The notes beneath the pieces were generated by a model, which was not told where the DNA came from, did not search any database, and saw nothing but the letters and a program-made list of their open reading frames with translations. A stretch of 64,000 nt of DNA. Source: Elusimicrobia bacterium UBA6262. Its GTDB lineage: Bacteria > CAYTYR01 > UBA6262. This document shows positions 9,393-54,001 of this stretch, one piece after another (the stretch's first letter is position 1; every line of letters begins with the position of its first letter). Where the stretch lies: assembly GCA_002441095.1 (NCBI GenBank), contig DJVG01000034.1, positions 61,072-125,071 on the forward strand, read 5' to 3'. Position numbers and translations under genes: made by a program.

Positions 9393-10358
9393 TCATCTTA
9401 AACTGTAAATCCTGGTTTCATGATTAGACAAAGGATATGCTTCTTTCTTTACTAGCTCATAGGCACTGGAAATAGGATACTTACTCATCACTACATCGCT
9501 AGGATCTCTTTTCCCTTCCCTATTCACTAAATAAAGTTTCCTAACCTTTAATCTGTCGATTTCAGACAAATAGTATTTTAAGTTGTCCAAGGTCATATGC
9601 TGAAAACTCATAGTATTAATGAACAAGTCTACCTTTCTGCTTAATTTTGGCAGGAGCCAGGGAGCTAACAGGATAACAACTTTTTCTGTTTCAGTAATAT
9701 TTATAGAATCAAGATCCTTTTCCTTAACCGCTACTTTAACTTTCAGGCCGCTATTACTCAGATAATAATAACTCAGGGATAAATTTTCCGGCAGGTCAAT
9801 CAGTATATAAGTTTTTATGGCGAATTCCTTTGATGAAATAAGTTTCTCGCAAAGACCGCCAAATCCGCCACCGATCTCCATAATGGTTTCAATGCTGTCA
9901 GCCGAAAATTCCTGCTTTAATTTTTCATGATAATAGAACATTCTAATACAAAAATCAGTTACTTTCCTATGACCAAGCAAATAGTAACATGGATTACCAA
10001 CCAGATTATCGGTCAGTCCGTTCATTTTTATCTTACACTGTTTATTTACCCTGTACATCTGCATTAATATATCCCTGATACCCCGTACTTTTTGCCAAAA
10101 AGGTATACCTTTTGGCCAGGGCTTAAAACTCGCAATACTTTGCGGTTGTGGTAAATACCATAACGGCCGGTCCGGGAAGGAAATTGTTCCTCCGGAAAGA
10201 GCGGTTCTCCTGAAATTTATCAGATTCGATTCGTTTAAATGGGCAGGGAAATAATCAATCTTGGCATTTTCAACCGGAGAGTGTTTCCAGCCTCCATTAC
10301 TGGTAGCGCTTAAATCCCGCAGGGTCTTGAAAAGTTCTATGGTTTCTTTTTCAAACAT
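9393..10358 (-). CDS. putative sugar O-methyltransferase
   Basis: IMEIGGGFGGLCEKL SAM-binding-like motif; sits in the glycan locus. Confidence 0.5.
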   Translation of the reverse strand: MFEKETIELFKTLRDLSATSNGGWKHSPVENAKIDYFPAHLNESNLINFRRTALSGGTISFPDRPLWYLPQPQSIASFKPWPKGIPFWQKVRGIRDILMQMYRVNKQCKIKMNGLTDNLVGNPCYYLLGHRKVTDFCIRMFYYHEKLKQEFSADSIETIMEIGGGFGGLCEKLISSKEFAIKTYILIDLPENLSLSYYYLSNSGLKVKVAVKEKDLDSINITETEKVVILLAPWLLPKLSRKVDLFINTMSFQHMTLDNLKYYLSEIDRLKVRKLYLVNREGKRDPSDVVMSKYPISSAYELVKKEAYPLSNHETRIYSLR

Positions 10359-11103: not shown

Positions 11104-12448
11104 TGTTTTTCCACCAGTCAGAGATCAATTGTTCAGCTACCTGGAAATCGTTTGCTTTACTGACATTAAGCATATGGATCAGCCCTTCGATCTCCAGCAT
11201 TCCTACTTTGGGCCCTAATCTTTCACCTCTGCGGATAAATTCGCTGTAGGTAGCCGTGCACAAGCCCGAAATCCCGATATGCAAAGGGTTTTTGTATTTA
11301 CTCGGGACAAAACCTTCATCCAGCCGTACCAGCTTGCCTTCTTCTTCGCGCCAGCAGGATTTATATTCCGGAATAGCCGGTAAAACACTGTCAAAGCCTT
11401 CTTCTACCAGCATCCTGATGGTTTGATCGATGATATTTTTTGGCCGGAAAGGATAGGTACTGCTTAAGTATACGACCACATCAGGGATGATCGCCTGCTG
11501 CTCTAAAACCTCCACCGTATATTTCAGTATTTCCTCTATTTCAATATAATCCTGTGAAAATTCCGGCGGCCTTTTCAGGCAGATTATTTTCTTATGTTTC
11601 TTGGCCAGATTGATATATTCATCATTATCGCAGGTTAAAACTATCTGCTTTATATAACGGGAAGCCAAAGCCCGTTCAATGGTATAATCCAATAGCGGCC
11701 GTCCGCCTAAACTAGCGATCTCCCCTTTCAACGGGATAACTGCCACACAATTTAGCTTCTCCGGATCAAGATTTTTATTTAGATGTCCATTTTCAAAAGT
11801 TTCCAGTATCCCCACTATTTTGCGGCATCTTTCCTCATCGGAGCTTTGATGTATCCCATGATAGTGGTAGACACTGGCTTCGGGTTCATAGATTATTTTA
11901 TAACCCTGGGTTAAGACCTGCTTCCCCCAAACCCGGTCTTCAATATTTGTAACTTGCTCATCAAACGGTATTTTTTCCCATACTGACCGCTTGATCAAAC
12001 TATTGGCATTATGAAAAAACGGATCCTTGATCTGCACCTTGCGGTCAAGTCCAAAAGTAATAAGCAGGTCCCGTTTATCAAAATCACTGCTATATGATAA
12101 GGGTTCTTGCCGGCCATATACCCCGGCAACATCAGGAGGAATAATACTATTAACAAGGTTAGATAACCATTTGTTATTAGTAGGAATGCAATGCCCGGAA
12201 AGACAGCAAATATATTCCCCTTTTGACTGCTTAATACCGTAATTGATAGCTTTACCTGGCTTAAAATCGTTTAGCGAAACAATATTTACATTATACAGTT
12301 TAGCCTTATCAATAGTCTTATCTGTGCTCTGATTATCAACCAGGATCACTTCGAAATCCTGGAAATCCTGCTTAAAAACAGCTGCCAGGCAGGAAGAGAT
12401 CCATCTTTCTTCATTTTTGGTCCTGATAATAATAGAAACTTTTGGCAT
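11093..12448 (-). CDS. fusion protein: N-terminal GT2 glycosyltransferase plus C-terminal cytidylyltransferase-like domain with a degenerate P-loop
   Basis: N-terminus VSIIIRTKNEER...FEVILVDNQSTD (GT2). The C-terminal half (VAVIPLKGEIASLGGRPLLDYTIERA...) is paralogous to the downstream cytidylyltransferase but lacks RGGSKG..KN. Confidence 0.7.
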   Translation of the reverse strand: MPKVSIIIRTKNEERWISSCLAAVFKQDFQDFEVILVDNQSTDKTIDKAKLYNVNIVSLNDFKPGKAINYGIKQSKGEYICCLSGHCIPTNNKWLSNLVNSIIPPDVAGVYGRQEPLSYSSDFDKRDLLITFGLDRKVQIKDPFFHNANSLIKRSVWEKIPFDEQVTNIEDRVWGKQVLTQGYKIIYEPEASVYHYHGIHQSSDEERCRKIVGILETFENGHLNKNLDPEKLNCVAVIPLKGEIASLGGRPLLDYTIERALASRYIKQIVLTCDNDEYINLAKKHKKIICLKRPPEFSQDYIEIEEILKYTVEVLEQQAIIPDVVVYLSSTYPFRPKNIIDQTIRMLVEEGFDSVLPAIPEYKSCWREEEGKLVRLDEGFVPSKYKNPLHIGISGLCTATYSEFIRRGERLGPKVGMLEIEGLIHMLNVSKANDFQVAEQLISDWWKNNDK

Positions 12449-21996: not shown

Positions 21997-22880
21997 TATC
22001 CTAAATACCTTTTAAGCGCATCCTGCCAGGTAGGCAGTACAGGCAAATTGTGTAATTTCCAGTTAAAATTATCCAATACCGAGTTTCCGGGTCGCGGAGC
22101 CGGCCGGTTTATCTGTTGGGTACTGACCGGCGCTATATTATCTTTGGCTCCGCTTTGTCTTACTATTTCCCTGGCAAAATCAAACCAGGAACAGGACCCG
22201 CTGTTAGTGATATGCCAAATACCATACAAGCCAGTTGATAGTTGATTGTTGATAGTTAATAGCTGCTTGATAGCTTCGGCCAGATCATCTGTATAGGTTG
22301 GAGAACCAAATTGGTCATTGATTACTTTTAGCTCATGTTTATTCTGTATTTGCGATTGGATTGCCGTCACAAAGTTTTGGCCATGCCGGCCAAAGAGCCA
22401 GCTGGAGCGGATAATCATAAACCTGTTGACCAGCCATTGGGTATATAATTCCCCCCAATATTTACTTTTAGCGTAGGTGCCCAGGGGTTCTGGCTGGTCT
22501 ATTTCCAGGTAAGGTTCTTTTTTCTGCCCGTTAAATACATAATCAGTGCTGATGTAAATCAAAGCTGAATCAAACCGCTGGCAGGCTAAGGCTACATTCC
22601 TGGTACCCAGGGAATTGACCTGGTATGCTTGTTCCTGGGAGCTTTCCGCCCCATCTACATTGGTGTAAGCAGCCGCGTGTATTACTAATTCAGGATTAAT
22701 TTTGGTAATAATTTCATAGGTTGCTTTAGCCTCGGTAATATCTATCAGCTGATATTTAGCACTCGGCATTTCTATGGTTGGCTTCCTGTTATCCAACCCA
22801 TAAAGCTCATGTTCTCCTGCCAGTGCCTGCATTAAATCAGTTCCCAACATGCCACTGGCCCCGGTTATCGCGATCCTCAT
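21996..22880 (-). CDS. rfbD: dTDP-4-dehydrorhamnose reductase
   Basis: MRIAITGASGMLG... RmlD-type SDR of 294 aa. Confidence 0.8.
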   Translation of the reverse strand: MRIAITGASGMLGTDLMQALAGEHELYGLDNRKPTIEMPSAKYQLIDITEAKATYEIITKINPELVIHAAAYTNVDGAESSQEQAYQVNSLGTRNVALACQRFDSALIYISTDYVFNGQKKEPYLEIDQPEPLGTYAKSKYWGELYTQWLVNRFMIIRSSWLFGRHGQNFVTAIQSQIQNKHELKVINDQFGSPTYTDDLAEAIKQLLTINNQLSTGLYGIWHITNSGSCSWFDFAREIVRQSGAKDNIAPVSTQQINRPAPRPGNSVLDNFNWKLHNLPVLPTWQDALKRYLG

Positions 22881-23973: not shown

Positions 23974-23994
23974 GGAAGTACACTCCTGTTTTGT

Positions 23995-24135
23995 TGTCGC
24001 TAGTCTCTAGTCGCTGGTCGCTAGTCTAAATACAGTCTCTGGTTACTAGTTTCTGGTCGCTAGTTCTTATGGTATTATTATTTGCTCTAATGCTTTTACT
24101 AGCAACTAGATACCAGCGACTAGCGACTGTCTTTA
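23995..24135. repeat. family-E palindromic element (GTCGCTAGTC / GACTAGCGAC arms)
   Basis: gtcgctagtctctagtcgctggtcgctagtc...ctggtcgctagttc / ctagcaactagataccagcgactagcgactg. Confidence 0.7.
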
Positions 24136-31241: not shown

Positions 31242-31313
31242 TTTACTCTCCTTTTTAAATACGATTACACAGATTATAAATACAGATTACACAGATTCAA
31301 GATGGAGTTAATT

Positions 31314-32600
31314 CTATTCTTTACTATGGTCTAATAAAAGTATTTTACGGACTTCACCTACGGTATATAATGAACCGGTGACAGTCACCAGGTCTTTTCT
31401 TCCGGCCAGTTTCAGCGCCTGCCTTATAGCTTGTGGGATAGAATTGGCTACTAATACCTGCGCATTGTCCGGCCATAACTTCCTGATTTTTTGCGGATCT
31501 AAAGCCCTATCCGAACCAGGCCGCACCAATATAGCCTGGTCAACCAGTGGAGCTATGATCTTAACCATCCGGCGATAATCCTTATCCTTTAAAACGCCAA
31601 AAACAAGAATAAGTTTGTGCCCGCTGGATTTCCTGTTTTCAAGTTCTCTTACCAGCGAGTTCATACCGGCTGGGTTATGCGCACCATCTAAAAGAACGGT
31701 TCGTGGTTCGTGGTTCGTGGTAAAAACCTTAAAGAGCTCCAGGCGGCCGGGCCAGAAAGCTTTTGCCAAACCCTGCTTGACTGCCTTTTCTGATATTTTG
31801 AAGCCTTGACGCTGTAATTGTTTAATAGCGCCTACAGCACAAGCGGCATTTATTTTTTGATGGGATCCTTTAAGGCTGATACTCCATCCTGCCGGGATCT
31901 TGATAATTTTATCTGCCCTTACCAGCCTGGCGTGTTTCTTCCGGCATTGTTCCCGGAAGACTGCCAACACTTCAGGTTGGGTGGCTGCAGTCACTACGAA
32001 ACTGTTCTTTTTGATGATCGCCGCTTTTTCGCGGGCAATTTTCCTTAAAGTGTTGCCCAGATATTCGGTGTGGTCATAATCCACATTCGTGATCACTGCT
32101 ACCAGTGGGTTCTCTACCACATTGGTAGCATCAAGCCTGCCGCCCATACCTGTTTCAATTACAGCCAGGTCAACTTTTTCCCGTGCAAAATAAATATAAG
32201 CAACCGCGGTAAGCATTTCAAAATAGGTCAGTTTTAGCCGCAGGGAATCACAGACTGCTTTTACTGTGCAGATCAAGCCGGCAAATACGGTCCGGTCAAT
32301 ATCCTGCCGGTTTATCTGTAGGCGTTCAGTCACCTCTGCTAAATGCGGAGAGGTATAAAGTCCTACCCTGTATCCGCCAGCCTGCAGGATACTGGACAGG
32401 AAAGCGCAAACTGAGCCTTTGCCGTTTGTCCCAGCTACGTGTATTACCGGTATCCGGCCTTGGGGATAGTTAAAAACTGCCAGCACTTTTCCTATCCTTT
32501 GCAGGTCAAATTTCACCCCGAGCAAAGCTAAGCTTTCCAGATAGCGGATAGCATCTTTAAAAGAACTAATTTTTTTATTATAACACATCGAACTGCTCAA
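31314..32600 (-). CDS. folC: bifunctional folylpolyglutamate synthase / dihydrofolate synthase
   Basis: VIHVAGTNGKGSV P-loop; Mur-ligase architecture. Confidence 0.85.
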   Translation of the reverse strand: MSSSMCYNKKISSFKDAIRYLESLALLGVKFDLQRIGKVLAVFNYPQGRIPVIHVAGTNGKGSVCAFLSSILQAGGYRVGLYTSPHLAEVTERLQINRQDIDRTVFAGLICTVKAVCDSLRLKLTYFEMLTAVAYIYFAREKVDLAVIETGMGGRLDATNVVENPLVAVITNVDYDHTEYLGNTLRKIAREKAAIIKKNSFVVTAATQPEVLAVFREQCRKKHARLVRADKIIKIPAGWSISLKGSHQKINAACAVGAIKQLQRQGFKISEKAVKQGLAKAFWPGRLELFKVFTTNHEPRTVLLDGAHNPAGMNSLVRELENRKSSGHKLILVFGVLKDKDYRRMVKIIAPLVDQAILVRPGSDRALDPQKIRKLWPDNAQVLVANSIPQAIRQALKLAGRKDLVTVTGSLYTVGEVRKILLLDHSKE

Positions 32601-32810
32601 CTACGATCCCTTTATAACTTCGGTTATCAGTTTATCAGGCTATCAGGAAGTGGTTATCAGGTTAATAAAGCTTCAGGATAACAGGCTATCAGAAGATCAG
32701 GACATCAGGAAATGCTTGATACTATGACTTTCTGATTCCCTGTTAACCTGATTCCCTGATACACTGGTTCCCACTTCCTGGTCTCCTGATTACCTGATCT
32801 CCTTTACTGT
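32601..32810. repeat. 210-bp imperfect palindrome built from about 9 ATCAGG and about 6 CCTGAT hexamer copies
   Basis: Seen directly: ggttatcag/tttatcagg/ctatcagg/...gatcagg/acatcagg on the left arm, mirrored by tccctgat/acctgat/ctcctgat on the right; ggaagtgg (32647) pairs with ccacttcc (32779). Confidence 0.7.
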
Positions 32811-45284: not shown

Positions 45285-45956
45285 TTACTTACATAATCTC
45301 ACAAAATTACGCAGGATCTGTAAGCCTATTTTTTGGCTCTTCTCCGGGTGGAACTGGCAGGCAAAAAGATTCCCTTTGGCAATTGAAGAACAAAATTCAA
45401 CGCCATAATCCGTAGTCGTAGCGATAATATTTTTATCTTTGGGCCTCACATAATACGAATGCACGAAATATACATAAGCATTATTTGGAATATTTTGTAA
45501 TATTTTTAGATTTTTACTTCCTGCACGCTGTACGCTATACGCTATACGCTGATTTATTTGATTCCACCCCATGTGGGGGATCTTTAAACCTGTCACGGGT
45601 TGCGGGTCGCGAGTCGCGAGTTTAGAGAAATTGAAGCGGGGGACAGTGCCTTTAACAATACCAAGGCCTTTACAGCCGCCGCCTTCTTCACTGGTCTCAA
45701 ACAGCAGTTGCAATCCCAGGCAGATACCCAGAAAAGGCTTATCCGCAGCAATAGTTTTCTTGATACTGCTGATCACTTTGGCCTTTTGCAGGGCTTGCAT
45801 GGCATCCGGCATCGCTCCTACGCCAGGCAGGACCACGCCAGAAGCTTTATTTATTATATCGGGGCTGGCTGTGATCTTAACTTCGGCCCCCAAACTTTCC
45901 AGGGCTTTGGCGACACTGCGCAGATTCCCCATCCCGTAATCGATTATGGCAATCAT
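45285..45956 (-). CDS. hisH: imidazole glycerol phosphate synthase glutaminase subunit
   Basis: GMGNLRSV...GICLGLQLLF...HMGWNQ...FVHSYY. 223 aa against about 196 typical, with two repeat-derived in-frame segments. Confidence 0.85.
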   Translation of the reverse strand: MIAIIDYGMGNLRSVAKALESLGAEVKITASPDIINKASGVVLPGVGAMPDAMQALQKAKVISSIKKTIAADKPFLGICLGLQLLFETSEEGGGCKGLGIVKGTVPRFNFSKLATRDPQPVTGLKIPHMGWNQINQRIAYSVQRAGSKNLKILQNIPNNAYVYFVHSYYVRPKDKNIIATTTDYGVEFCSSIAKGNLFACQFHPEKSQKIGLQILRNFVRLCK

Positions 45957-50364: not shown

Positions 50365-50469
50365 GTTCTAATTTCTAATTTCTAAACTCTAAACAATTTC
50401 AAAATTCTAATATTCAAAACGTTTTGAATTTTGGTAATTTAATATTGTTTAGGATTTCGAATTTAGTAT

Positions 50470-51348
50470 TTAGGATTTGTTCTTTGCTATTATTATTCTT
50501 TCAATTCCAGCATAATCTTTTTTAATCTCAATATTACTGAAAAGCTGCTCTTTTTCCAATAATTGCTTTATTTTCCCGGCTTGCCCATACCCTATCTCAA
50601 ACGCCAGTAAGCCTCCCGGCTGCAGGTAGTACCTGGCCTGGGGAATGATCTTGCGATAAAAATCCAGGCCGTCCTTCCCGCCATAAAGAGCGGCTTTTGG
50701 TTCATATCCGACTTCTGGCTGTAACGCAGCAAAATCTTTCTCAGTGACATACGGCGGATTAGACACGATAAAATCGAACTTTTCCTTCAGCCTGGCAAAC
50801 AAACTGCCCCTGATCAGTTTAACCTGTGTTTCTACCCGGTGTTTCTTAATATTTTTCCTGGCGATTCTGAGCGCTTTTGCCGAGGTATCTGTCCCTAGTA
50901 TGCTGGCCTGGTTCAAATTTTTAGCCAGGGCCACGACAATCGCCCCGCTCCCCACCCCAATCTCCAATATCTTTAGTTTACCAGCGACTAGCGACCAGCG
51001 ACTAGCGACTGCTTTTATTATTTCTTCTACCAGCAGCTCCGTCTCCGGCCGGGGAATGAGTACTCCTTTATTAATGAACAGGTCCAAGCCATAGAATTGC
51101 GCATTCTTTAAAATATAGCTAGCTGGTATCCTCTGGCGACGCAATACAATATATTTTTTGAAACACGTTAAGTCTTTTTTGGCTATTTCTTTTTCTTTTT
51201 TCAGGAACAGGTCCAGTTTTTTCATTCTCAGTGCCTGGGAAAGCAGCAACTGCGCTTCCAAAGCCGGCTCAGGCACCCTGGCTTGGGTTAATTGTTCAAT
51301 CCCCCATTCTAATAATGTGCTAATCCGAGAGCCATTTATAATACTCAT
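50470..51348 (-). CDS. prmC: peptide chain release factor N5-glutamine methyltransferase
   Basis: LIPRPETE...[11 protein letters not shown]...IVSNPPYV. Confidence 0.85.
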
Positions 51349-53894: not shown

Positions 53895-53915
53895 GAACGT
53901 CTTCCTCCTCTTTTT

Positions 53916-53993
53916 AGCGGGTAGCGTTTAGCGGGTAGCGTATAGAAAATCAATATTCTTTTCCTATACGCTATACGCCATACGCTATACGCT
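53916..53993. repeat. family-B palindromic element
   Basis: gcgggtagcgtttagcgggtagcgtatag-aaaatcaatattctttt-cctatacgctatacgccatacgctatacgc. Confidence 0.75.
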
Positions 53994-54001
53994 GTTTTAT
54001 T

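Follow-up and report, generated by a model that had tools for sequence, protein, structure and literature searches.

A short in-frame heptanucleotide repeat array in prmC of an Elusimicrobia bacterium and the turnover of its unit at the same position in relatives

Introduction

Heptanucleotides are the most over-represented long simple sequence repeats (SSRs) in many bacteria, and their origin and role are unexplained (PMC4692102; PMC4679880). For the heptanucleotide long SSRs of bacteria described by Mrazek (2007), slippage or conversion of 7-nucleotide (nt) units was proposed, as the work is summarized in PMC4679880. Here, we describe an array of four such units that lies in frame within prmC (hemK), the gene for the release-factor N5-glutamine methyltransferase, in a stretch of 64,000 nt from Elusimicrobia bacterium UBA6262 (GenBank assembly GCA_002441095.1, contig DJVG01000034.1, positions 61,072 to 125,071 of the forward strand). 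This stretch is hereafter called the window, and coordinates without a locus name refer to it. At the site of the array in prmC, hereafter the slot, relatives retain the position and the 7-base period but not the sequence, which turns over.

The GGGNATC repeats of Xanthomonas and Nostoc show a clear preference for about four units and occur less often than expected in coding sequence (Rehm, 2015, PMC4692102). The arrays of the window resemble them in that they are tandem 7-nt units in genome-wide excess, mostly intergenic, arranged in inverted pairs, and often less than 50 bp from stop codons between co-directional genes, and they share the preference for about four units (median 4.35 here). 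However, the units found here are not G-rich, so that G-quadruplex formation cannot account for the four-unit preference in this case, and they form many related families instead of one. Further, the genes of conserved housekeeping enzymes here carry in-frame arrays at slots that their orthologues have in common.

A second comparison is with the TAACTGA repeats of Beggiatoaceae, cyanobacteria and Bacteroidetes, which likewise comprise 2–6 direct heptamer copies in mostly intergenic positions, with occasional copies in open reading frames (ORFs) in a stop-free orientation and strain-specific turnover including insertions and deletions in 7-nt steps (PMC4679880). By contrast, TAACTGA itself is absent here. 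In Beggiatoaceae the ORF copies are found at the ends of proteins or in hypothetical proteins; those described below are instead in internal loops of PrmC, HisH, FolC and RmlD. Further, TAACTGA forms single arrays before start codons, whereas most intergenic arrays here are arms of hairpins that follow genes.

Heterocystous cyanobacteria are reported, in work by Elhai and colleagues, to carry STRR heptamers, with small dispersed repeat (SDR) elements of 21–27 nt reportedly embedded in the heptamer arrays of Nostoc. The arrays described here are similar to STRR in being tandem heptamers that form a dispersed genomic class, and relatives of the window have mini-hairpins nested in their arrays that resemble the SDR elements as reported. 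However, the STRR1-3 units are absent, the prmC array of the window has no nested insert, and the host is not a cyanobacterium: NCBI records carry the label 'bacterium' or 'Elusimicrobia bacterium', and Omnitrophica is the label of the nearest HisH outgroups. Using a run of three tandem copies with at most two mismatches as the search criterion, we found no arrays of STRR1 (CCCCAGT), STRR2 (TTGGTCA), STRR3 (CAACAGT), TAACTGA, GGGAATC or GGGGAYT on either strand of the window.

Like the REP, BIME and REPIN intergenic palindromes, the arrays of this genome usually take the form of an intergenic hairpin, here of 80–150 nt, that follows a gene and recurs in dispersed, at times nearly identical, copies. 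Unlike in those elements, each arm here is made of 7-nt units in tandem, with mismatches spaced about 7 nt apart, and the prmC array is a single arm without a hairpin. The arrays described here differ from the known heptamers in their many related unit families and, chiefly, in that housekeeping enzymes have in-frame copies at internal slots that are conserved while the units turn over. In the literature searched, we found no description of such a case.

The Array and Its Host Protein

The array occupies positions 50983..51010 on the minus strand and was called by Tandem Repeats Finder (TRF) at period 7 with 4.0 copies and 90% matches; TRF also called 50980–51009 at period 14 (2.1 copies, 100% matches). 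The sequence of 50981–51012 is ccagcgactagcgaccagcgactagcgactgc, and on the coding (minus) strand the units read AGTCGCT, AGTCGCT, GGTCGCT and AGTCGCT, preceded by GC and followed by GG. In our own period scan the array scored 15, against about zero arrays in shuffled sequences, and with four head-to-tail copies it is a heptanucleotide SSR as defined by at least three. Translation of the minus-strand ORF places the array in frame at residues 113–122 and yields the peptide that a preliminary description of this DNA had read from it.

That description had further regarded the segment as an in-frame member of the 7-nt unit family, called family E, of an intergenic array at about 24 kb. This is borne out by an exact 20-mer, ctagtcgctggtcgctagtc, which is common to the reverse complement of the prmC array and the intergenic array. 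The match lies at 24007–24026; the range first given for it, 24009–24031, runs a few bases too far to the right, where the two sequences diverge. With up to one mismatch allowed, GTCGCTAGTC occurs 10 times in the window against 1.3 expected, and none of 100 shuffles reached 10. The 20-mer belongs to the 3' arm of an intergenic hairpin (23996..24026, minus strand; GTCGCTA x4.4 when read on the plus strand). The 5' arm in transcript sense (24098..24128, minus strand; identified from the sequence, TRF and the RNA fold) is built of the AGTCGCT unit itself and has 18 nt, CAGTCGCTAGTCGCTGGT, in common with the prmC array, flanking bases included. RNA folding of 23985–24134 gave -43.3 kcal/mol with a z-score of -5.6.

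By contrast, no inverted partner of the array exists within prmC, and its RNA fold is insignificant (z -1.7; 10–13 of 200 shuffles fold equally well). A hairpin pairing the array with a nearby partner was therefore rejected, since there is no such partner. The imperfect palindrome and hairpin that characterize REP and REPIN elements are absent from the prmC array and present in its intergenic relatives. No Rfam family matched anything in the window. An assembly artefact was also rejected, since the arrays are shorter than reads, in frame, and recurrent in independent assemblies of different projects.

The host gene (50470..51348, minus strand) encodes a protein of 292 amino acids (aa), assigned from the ORF list, Pfam and structure matches. 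A database protein 100% identical to it carries the PF17827 (PrmC_N) and PF05175 (MTS) domains, and the translation of the ORF contains the SAM-binding GxGxG motif as ILEIGVGSG and the catalytic NPPY motif as SNPPY. The HemK structures 1NV8, 1SG9 and 1T43 match at E-values from 1e-38 to 1e-29, about 1e-38 for the Thermotoga maritima structures and 1e-29 for that of Escherichia coli. The peptide lies at the end of the first methyltransferase helix and in the loop that follows. As first described, it directly precedes GxGxG, and the E. coli segment is about 6 residues shorter: the HMMER alignment places a 6-residue gap in E. coli HemK (1T43/2B3T) exactly opposite the array, and T. maritima HemK has a gap of 5 residues there.

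An AlphaFold2 model of PrmC (mean pLDDT 92.9) has a helix at residues 101–117, the first of the methyltransferase domain, a loop at 118–125 and strand beta-1 at 126–130. Residues 111–130 have the lowest model confidence in the protein apart from the N-terminus, with pLDDT dipping to 77–84 at the array segment, and among 27 PrmC homologues this segment is the sole internal stretch with free variation in both length and sequence. Thus, the array sits in a permissive loop that tolerates insertions and deletions, and PrmC is thereby about 5–6 residues longer than its E. coli and T. maritima homologues.

Heptamer Arrays as a Class

The prmC array is one of many. Our own scan of the window found 17 arrays at period 7 and 12 at period 14, the double unit, compared with 0–3 at periods 4–6, 8–13 and 15 and 0–1 in shuffles, and TRF called 26 heptanucleotide arrays in the 64 kb. 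Copy number is narrowly distributed around the median given above, with 21 of the 26 arrays rounding to 4 or 5. The loci of the clade hold 2.35 arrays per 10 kb; other prmC loci, totaling about 0.9 Mb, hold 0.43. ORFs cover about 93% of the window but contain only 6 of the 26 arrays (P ~1e-18).

Units are related to each other beyond chance: among 56 arrays from the window and its relatives, 163 pairs of units differ by at most one mismatch, where 36 were expected with a maximum of 58. AGCGTAT, AGTTGCG, AGTCGCT, TAGTTGA, GGCAGAT and TTTAGAA are examples of families that recur across genomes, both in genes and between them. The usual form is an intergenic inverted pair, whose long hairpin fold has mismatches at intervals of about 7 nt (z -2.7 to -6.6). 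The prmC array is a solo member of this class, in which short heptamer arrays occur throughout the lineage and usually make up hairpin arms between genes.

Every long ORF of the window (1–64000) is on the minus strand, and the GC skew stays negative over its whole length, flattening only after about 60 kb. The window is consistent with one long co-directional stretch of leading-strand type.

The prmC Slot in Relatives

Syntenic loci (polA ... rho-rpmE-DUF1385-prfA-prmC-murA-hisD ...) were taken from 10 further assemblies and contain 7 distinct prmC sequences. By PrfA/MurA identity, locus L001 is closest to the window (97/95%), followed by L005, L025 and L003 (94–96% for PrfA and 92–93% for MurA where present), by L026, L024 and L110 (86–93%, with L024 at about 88–90%), and by L027, L108 and L109 (71–79%). 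All 10 have a period-7 array, or a decayed or interrupted one, at the prmC slot, which extends from the invariant Val114 codon, where the array starts, to the Lys codons preceding ILEIG, and is mostly four units long.

Read from that codon, the slot of the window is GTCGCTA GTCGCTG, twice over. The slot of L001 consists of GTTGGCG, GACGGCG, GACGGCA and GAAGGCA, that of L110 of GTTAACC and three copies of GTTGGCC, that of L108 of GTTAACA, GATATCA, GATGACA and GATGACT, and that of L027 of three copies of GTTCATC and one of GTTGATA. The array is weaker in L109 and decayed in L003, L005 and L025. L024 has the AGTCGCT unit of the window, interrupted by a 28-nt GC-rich insert, and L026 has a GGCAGAT unit that is interrupted likewise. 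The presence of the insert in related genomes, proposed as a check in the preliminary description, thus holds for the slot, which is filled in all relatives recovered, and not for the unit, which is mostly another one (GGCGGAC, GTTGGCC, GTTCATC and GATGACA are among the lineage units), with L024 having the same. In six lineages, units are 0.64–0.90 identical within an array, compared with 0.35–0.40 between lineages at the same positions.

As controls, we used 62 prmC genes from outside the clade, obtained from a metagenome scan with generic PrmC motifs, which returned only distant genes of at most 47% identity and no further clade members. None of the 62 has a period-7 run of at least 10 at the slot, and their linker has a median length of 22 aa, compared with 26–38 aa in the clade. 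Among relatives of 55–84% identity the segment is the most variable part of PrmC, and in distant orthologues it is absent or shorter, so that the protein-level conservation across orthologues that would speak against a repeat-derived insert is not seen. In one clade protein, P0017, whose DNA lies outside the recovered loci, the slot seems to be empty or short, and P0018 is another clade member whose linker is short.

Along with the two sites in hisH described below, the slot constitutes an unusually clean natural experiment, in which the same codon-level position holds a period-7 or period-7-derived array in every relative recovered, mostly with another unit. Position can be read exactly against the flanking protein sequence, which separates what is retained in position and period from what is retained in sequence, and concerted evolution or templated renewal of short arrays becomes directly testable. 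In practical terms, alignments and gene trees of these lineages include loop segments that are repeat-derived and not homologous, and gene callers may encounter stop codons or frameshifts borne by arrays.

A unit of 7 nt is not divisible by three, and because the array is within a coding sequence, gain or loss of one unit could toggle prmC, and likewise hisH, folC and rmlD, as a contingency (phase-variation) switch; heptamers are known slippage substrates (Mrazek, 2007, via the summary in PMC4679880). However, among the clade sequences recovered, the 11 prmC loci, the 18 PrmC proteins and the roughly 21 HisH proteins are all in frame and full length, there are only about four copies, and the host genes are housekeeping genes instead of surface, virulence or restriction-modification genes. 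We consider such a switch very unlikely. Within species, the loci L001/L002/L006 and L003/L004 are identical at the array and differ only by runs of N.

The distribution of slot alleles does not follow the species tree: the window shares AGTCGCT...GKLK with L024, and L001 shares GGCAGA...KN[IL]K with L026. A sliding-window identity test for recombination near the slot gave a weak signal in a single window. This mismatch may reflect local recombination or templated replacement. As a separate observation, the DNA of the window around the slot (50925–51020) is nearer to L024, L026 and L110 than to its nearest relative, L001.

These alleles also bear on the possibility that the prmC array is a recent copy-and-paste product, in this genome, of a mobile family-E element represented by one arm of the 24-kb hairpin. 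Such a copy would fit the exact 20-mer in common with 24007–24026 and the 18-mer, with flanking bases, in common with the other arm, as well as the dispersal of unit families within and between genomes and the recurrence of whole hairpins as copies of about 78 nt with about 95% identity. However, L024 has the AGTCGCT unit at the same slot followed by the same GKLK codons, and the allele therefore predates this genome; moreover, the slot is filled in every relative recovered. Neither target-site duplications nor terminal features were found, and no transposase is linked, although no search for RAYT was made. A recent mobile copy is thus improbable.

In-Frame Arrays in hisH, folC and rmlD

A repeat scan of the coding sequences, which had been suggested at the outset, found four further heptamer arrays inside genes of the window, and the prmC copy is thus no singular case. 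All are in frame on the minus strand. Two lie in hisH: ACTCGCG/ACCCGCA at slot 1 (45602..45621; peptide KLATRDPQPV) and AGCGTAT x3.7 at slot 2 (45525..45550; QRIAYSVQRAG). The other two, identified by TRF and translation, are ACCACGA x3.4 with 100% matches in folC (31698..31721; TTNHEPRT) and CTATCAA x4.3 in rmlD, the gene for dTDP-4-dehydrorhamnose reductase (22233..22262; LLTINNQLST). As in PrmC, structures of homologues have gaps at these positions, of 5 residues in T. maritima FolC (1O5Z) and of 6 residues in the RmlD structure 3SC6.

Both hisH slots, after PRFNFSK and after HMGWNQI, are hypervariable in length in an alignment of 32 HisH proteins (A3). Period-7 hisH arrays are present in the window, L003, L024 and L027, one of them decayed and one common to two loci, and their units (ACTCGCG/AGCGTAT, ACCCGCG, ACGACCA/AAAAATC and CAGATAG) turn over at both slots as they do at the prmC slot. 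A hairpin between the two hisH arrays was rejected, since their units are not complementary.

It might be argued that the PrmC segment is kept for its peptide, as a lineage-specific extension of the helix and loop, and that the DNA periodicity is incidental. This would fit the P0003 sublineage, in which the array has decayed, the segment now evolves as ordinary protein sequence, and SELKVTNWRVEN and its variants are conserved across 77–90% identity. However, selection on amino acids cannot produce a 7-nt period, and the peptides differ wholly between lineages. Further, slot 2 of HisH P0128 reads SPVASRQSLV, which is the unit of the prmC array in another gene of another genome, and the same DNA unit yields VASRQSLV there. 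The peptide explanation is thus largely refuted, and we regard it as highly improbable.

Outside the clade, peptides with a 7-aa (21-nt) period were observed at both hisH slots (IAYSVERIAYSER, GKWKVESGKWKK and SFQLSAFSFQQ) in HisH P0141, P0143, P0150, P0151, P0186 and P0222, some of which are labeled Omnitrophica. In-frame heptamer arrays in hisH may therefore extend well beyond this clade.

Proposed Array Renewal and Stop-Codon Avoidance

Taken together, we suggest that the in-frame heptanucleotide repeat of prmC is probably close to neutral in its permissive loop, being renewed by a lineage-wide process and filtered by selection. In this model, a mutational process characteristic of the lineage would generate the arrays and renew them time and again; replication slippage or intra-array conversion of 7-nt units are the candidates for it, and copying from other arrays of the same unit family possibly contributes. 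Selection would act merely as a filter: it would preserve a total length divisible by three, eliminate stop codons in frame (TAG to TGG at codon 118), and leave arrays only in loops with room for a few additional residues. No specific function would attach to the peptide as such. Decay of the array, as in the P0003 sublineage, is expected if the periodicity itself is not required.

The sequences show signs of a filtering of stop codons. An idealized, perfect AGTCGCT array translates as AVASR*SLV, whereas the observed one gives AVASRWSLV, in which Trp118 is encoded by TGG (50995..50997, minus strand) from the G-variant third unit in place of the TAG of a perfect array. In slot 2 of the hisH of the window a T>C change in the third unit turns TAG into CAG, and in that of L027 TAG is replaced by TGG. 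In P0128 HisH, the same stop that the window avoids in prmC as TGG is avoided as CAG. The rmlD unit, which contains stops on one strand, sits in the stop-free orientation.

Several points nevertheless weigh against near-neutral renewal. Intergenic 5' arms have the G-variant third unit as well, for instance that of the rho-rpmE hairpin with CAG-N4-TAG-N4-TGG-N4-TAG, so the TGG in prmC may be inherited family architecture and not the repair of a stop. Slippage by a single unit shifts the frame, and homogenization in place therefore needs length-neutral conversion or jumps of three units, neither of which was observed directly. The slot and its length of about four units persist down to 58% PrmC identity, including L027, which is beyond purely neutral expectation. 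Finally, the distribution of units off the species tree suggests recombination or templated replacement over simple drift in place.

Intergenic Hairpins and a Possible Regulatory Role

Next to prmC itself, inverted AAATCCT/TTAGAAA arrays form a prmC-murA intergenic hairpin (50366..50478, minus strand; TRF and RNA fold) with a mismatch every 7 nt, -22.7 kcal/mol and a z-score of -5.25, and orthologous hairpins are found in L003, L024 and L025. The rho-rpmE spacer is observed as a hairpin of AGCGTAT arrays in the window (53895–54001), L001 (7376–7479), L003 (7321–7424) and L024 (1984–2087). L001 and L003 are identical over 104 of 104 positions of this spacer, compared with only 92–94% identity in the flanking 300 nt of rho and rpmE. 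L005, L025 and L108 have another hairpin, of the GATTACAC type, in the same spacer, and L027 and L109 have none. The spacer hence looks like a constrained yet replaceable element. The hairpin copies of about 78 nt mentioned above are those of L001 rho-rpmE and L003 fpg-coaE.

Different unit families follow one design: [C/T]AG-N4 is repeated, and its third or second unit has TGG or CAG. This design is seen at 53895–54001, 50975–51020 and 45521–45550 of the window and 15376–15406 of L027. The AG-bearing arm lies on the 5' side of the transcript in 6 of 7 hairpins of the window (as a count only), which recalls the UAG-N4 repeats of HutP. A 22-nt direct repeat, TAAATACGATTACACAGATTA x2 at 31256–31297, includes the GATTACAC motif, which also builds the rho-rpmE hairpins of L005, L025 and L108.

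Alternative to near-neutral renewal, the arrays might be functional periodic [U/C][A/G]G-N4 sites for an oligomeric RNA- or single-stranded DNA-binding protein that controls the intergenic hairpins, with the slots inside coding sequences kept for use, such as control of translation or decay inside the prfA-prmC-murA operon. Models for such a protein are HutP, whose targets are UAG-N4 repeats, as well as TRAP, ribosomal protein S1 and the cold-shock proteins. Binding of S1, Csp or CsrA was proposed for the TAACTGA repeats (MacGregor, 2015, PMC4679880). Such sites would account for the conservation of slot position, period and four-unit length without conservation of sequence, for the CAG-N4-TAG-N4-TGG-N4-TAG pattern shared by different unit families, for the identity of the rho-rpmE spacer of L001 and L003 amid more diverged genes, and for L027, in which the only two period-7 arrays in 20 kb are those at the prmC and hisH slots. 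However, the sense strand has no AG-containing register in about half of the arrays inside coding sequences (hisH slot 1, folC and rmlD), solo intergenic arrays favor neither strand (3 sense and 3 antisense by manual count), the P0003 sublineage was allowed to lose its prmC array to decay, and no candidate binding protein was identified. We therefore consider binding sites of this kind unlikely.

A broader version would have the arrays as product or target of a dedicated system of the clade, either a templated 'array-writing' or conversion machinery or a global [U/C][A/G]G-N4 RNA-binding regulator that opens hairpins between cistrons. In that case, the in-frame slots of prmC and hisH would be functional and selected across deep divergence. 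We hold this to be distinctly unlikely.

Period-8 Pairs, Mini-Hairpins and a Dispersed Element

Between folC and the next gene (32622–32772), a period-8 inverted pair was observed in which TATCAGG-type units face CCTGAT-type units, and the hairpin-of-arrays design is therefore not confined to period 7.

The GC-rich mini-hairpins nested in the heptamer arrays of relatives, and absent from the prmC array of the window, are 16–36 nt long and were observed in L024 (5177–5204 and 10253–10268), L026 (1294–1320), L003 (15602–15628 and 10983–11018) and L001 (4373–4408). Their stems are, for example, CCCGCC...GGCGGG, CCCTCCC...GGGAGG and TCCCGA...TCGGGA. A generic scan for GC-rich hairpins was too noisy to define them as a family. 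Three mini-hairpins are in frame, namely in prmC of L024 (RPADVLVAG), prmC of L026 (LPANVGGQ) and hisH of L003 (LPANACREG).

Upstream of polA, an element of about 350 nt (L001 810–1154) has copies of 90–97% identity in L006 at 9487–9829 and 11398–11557.

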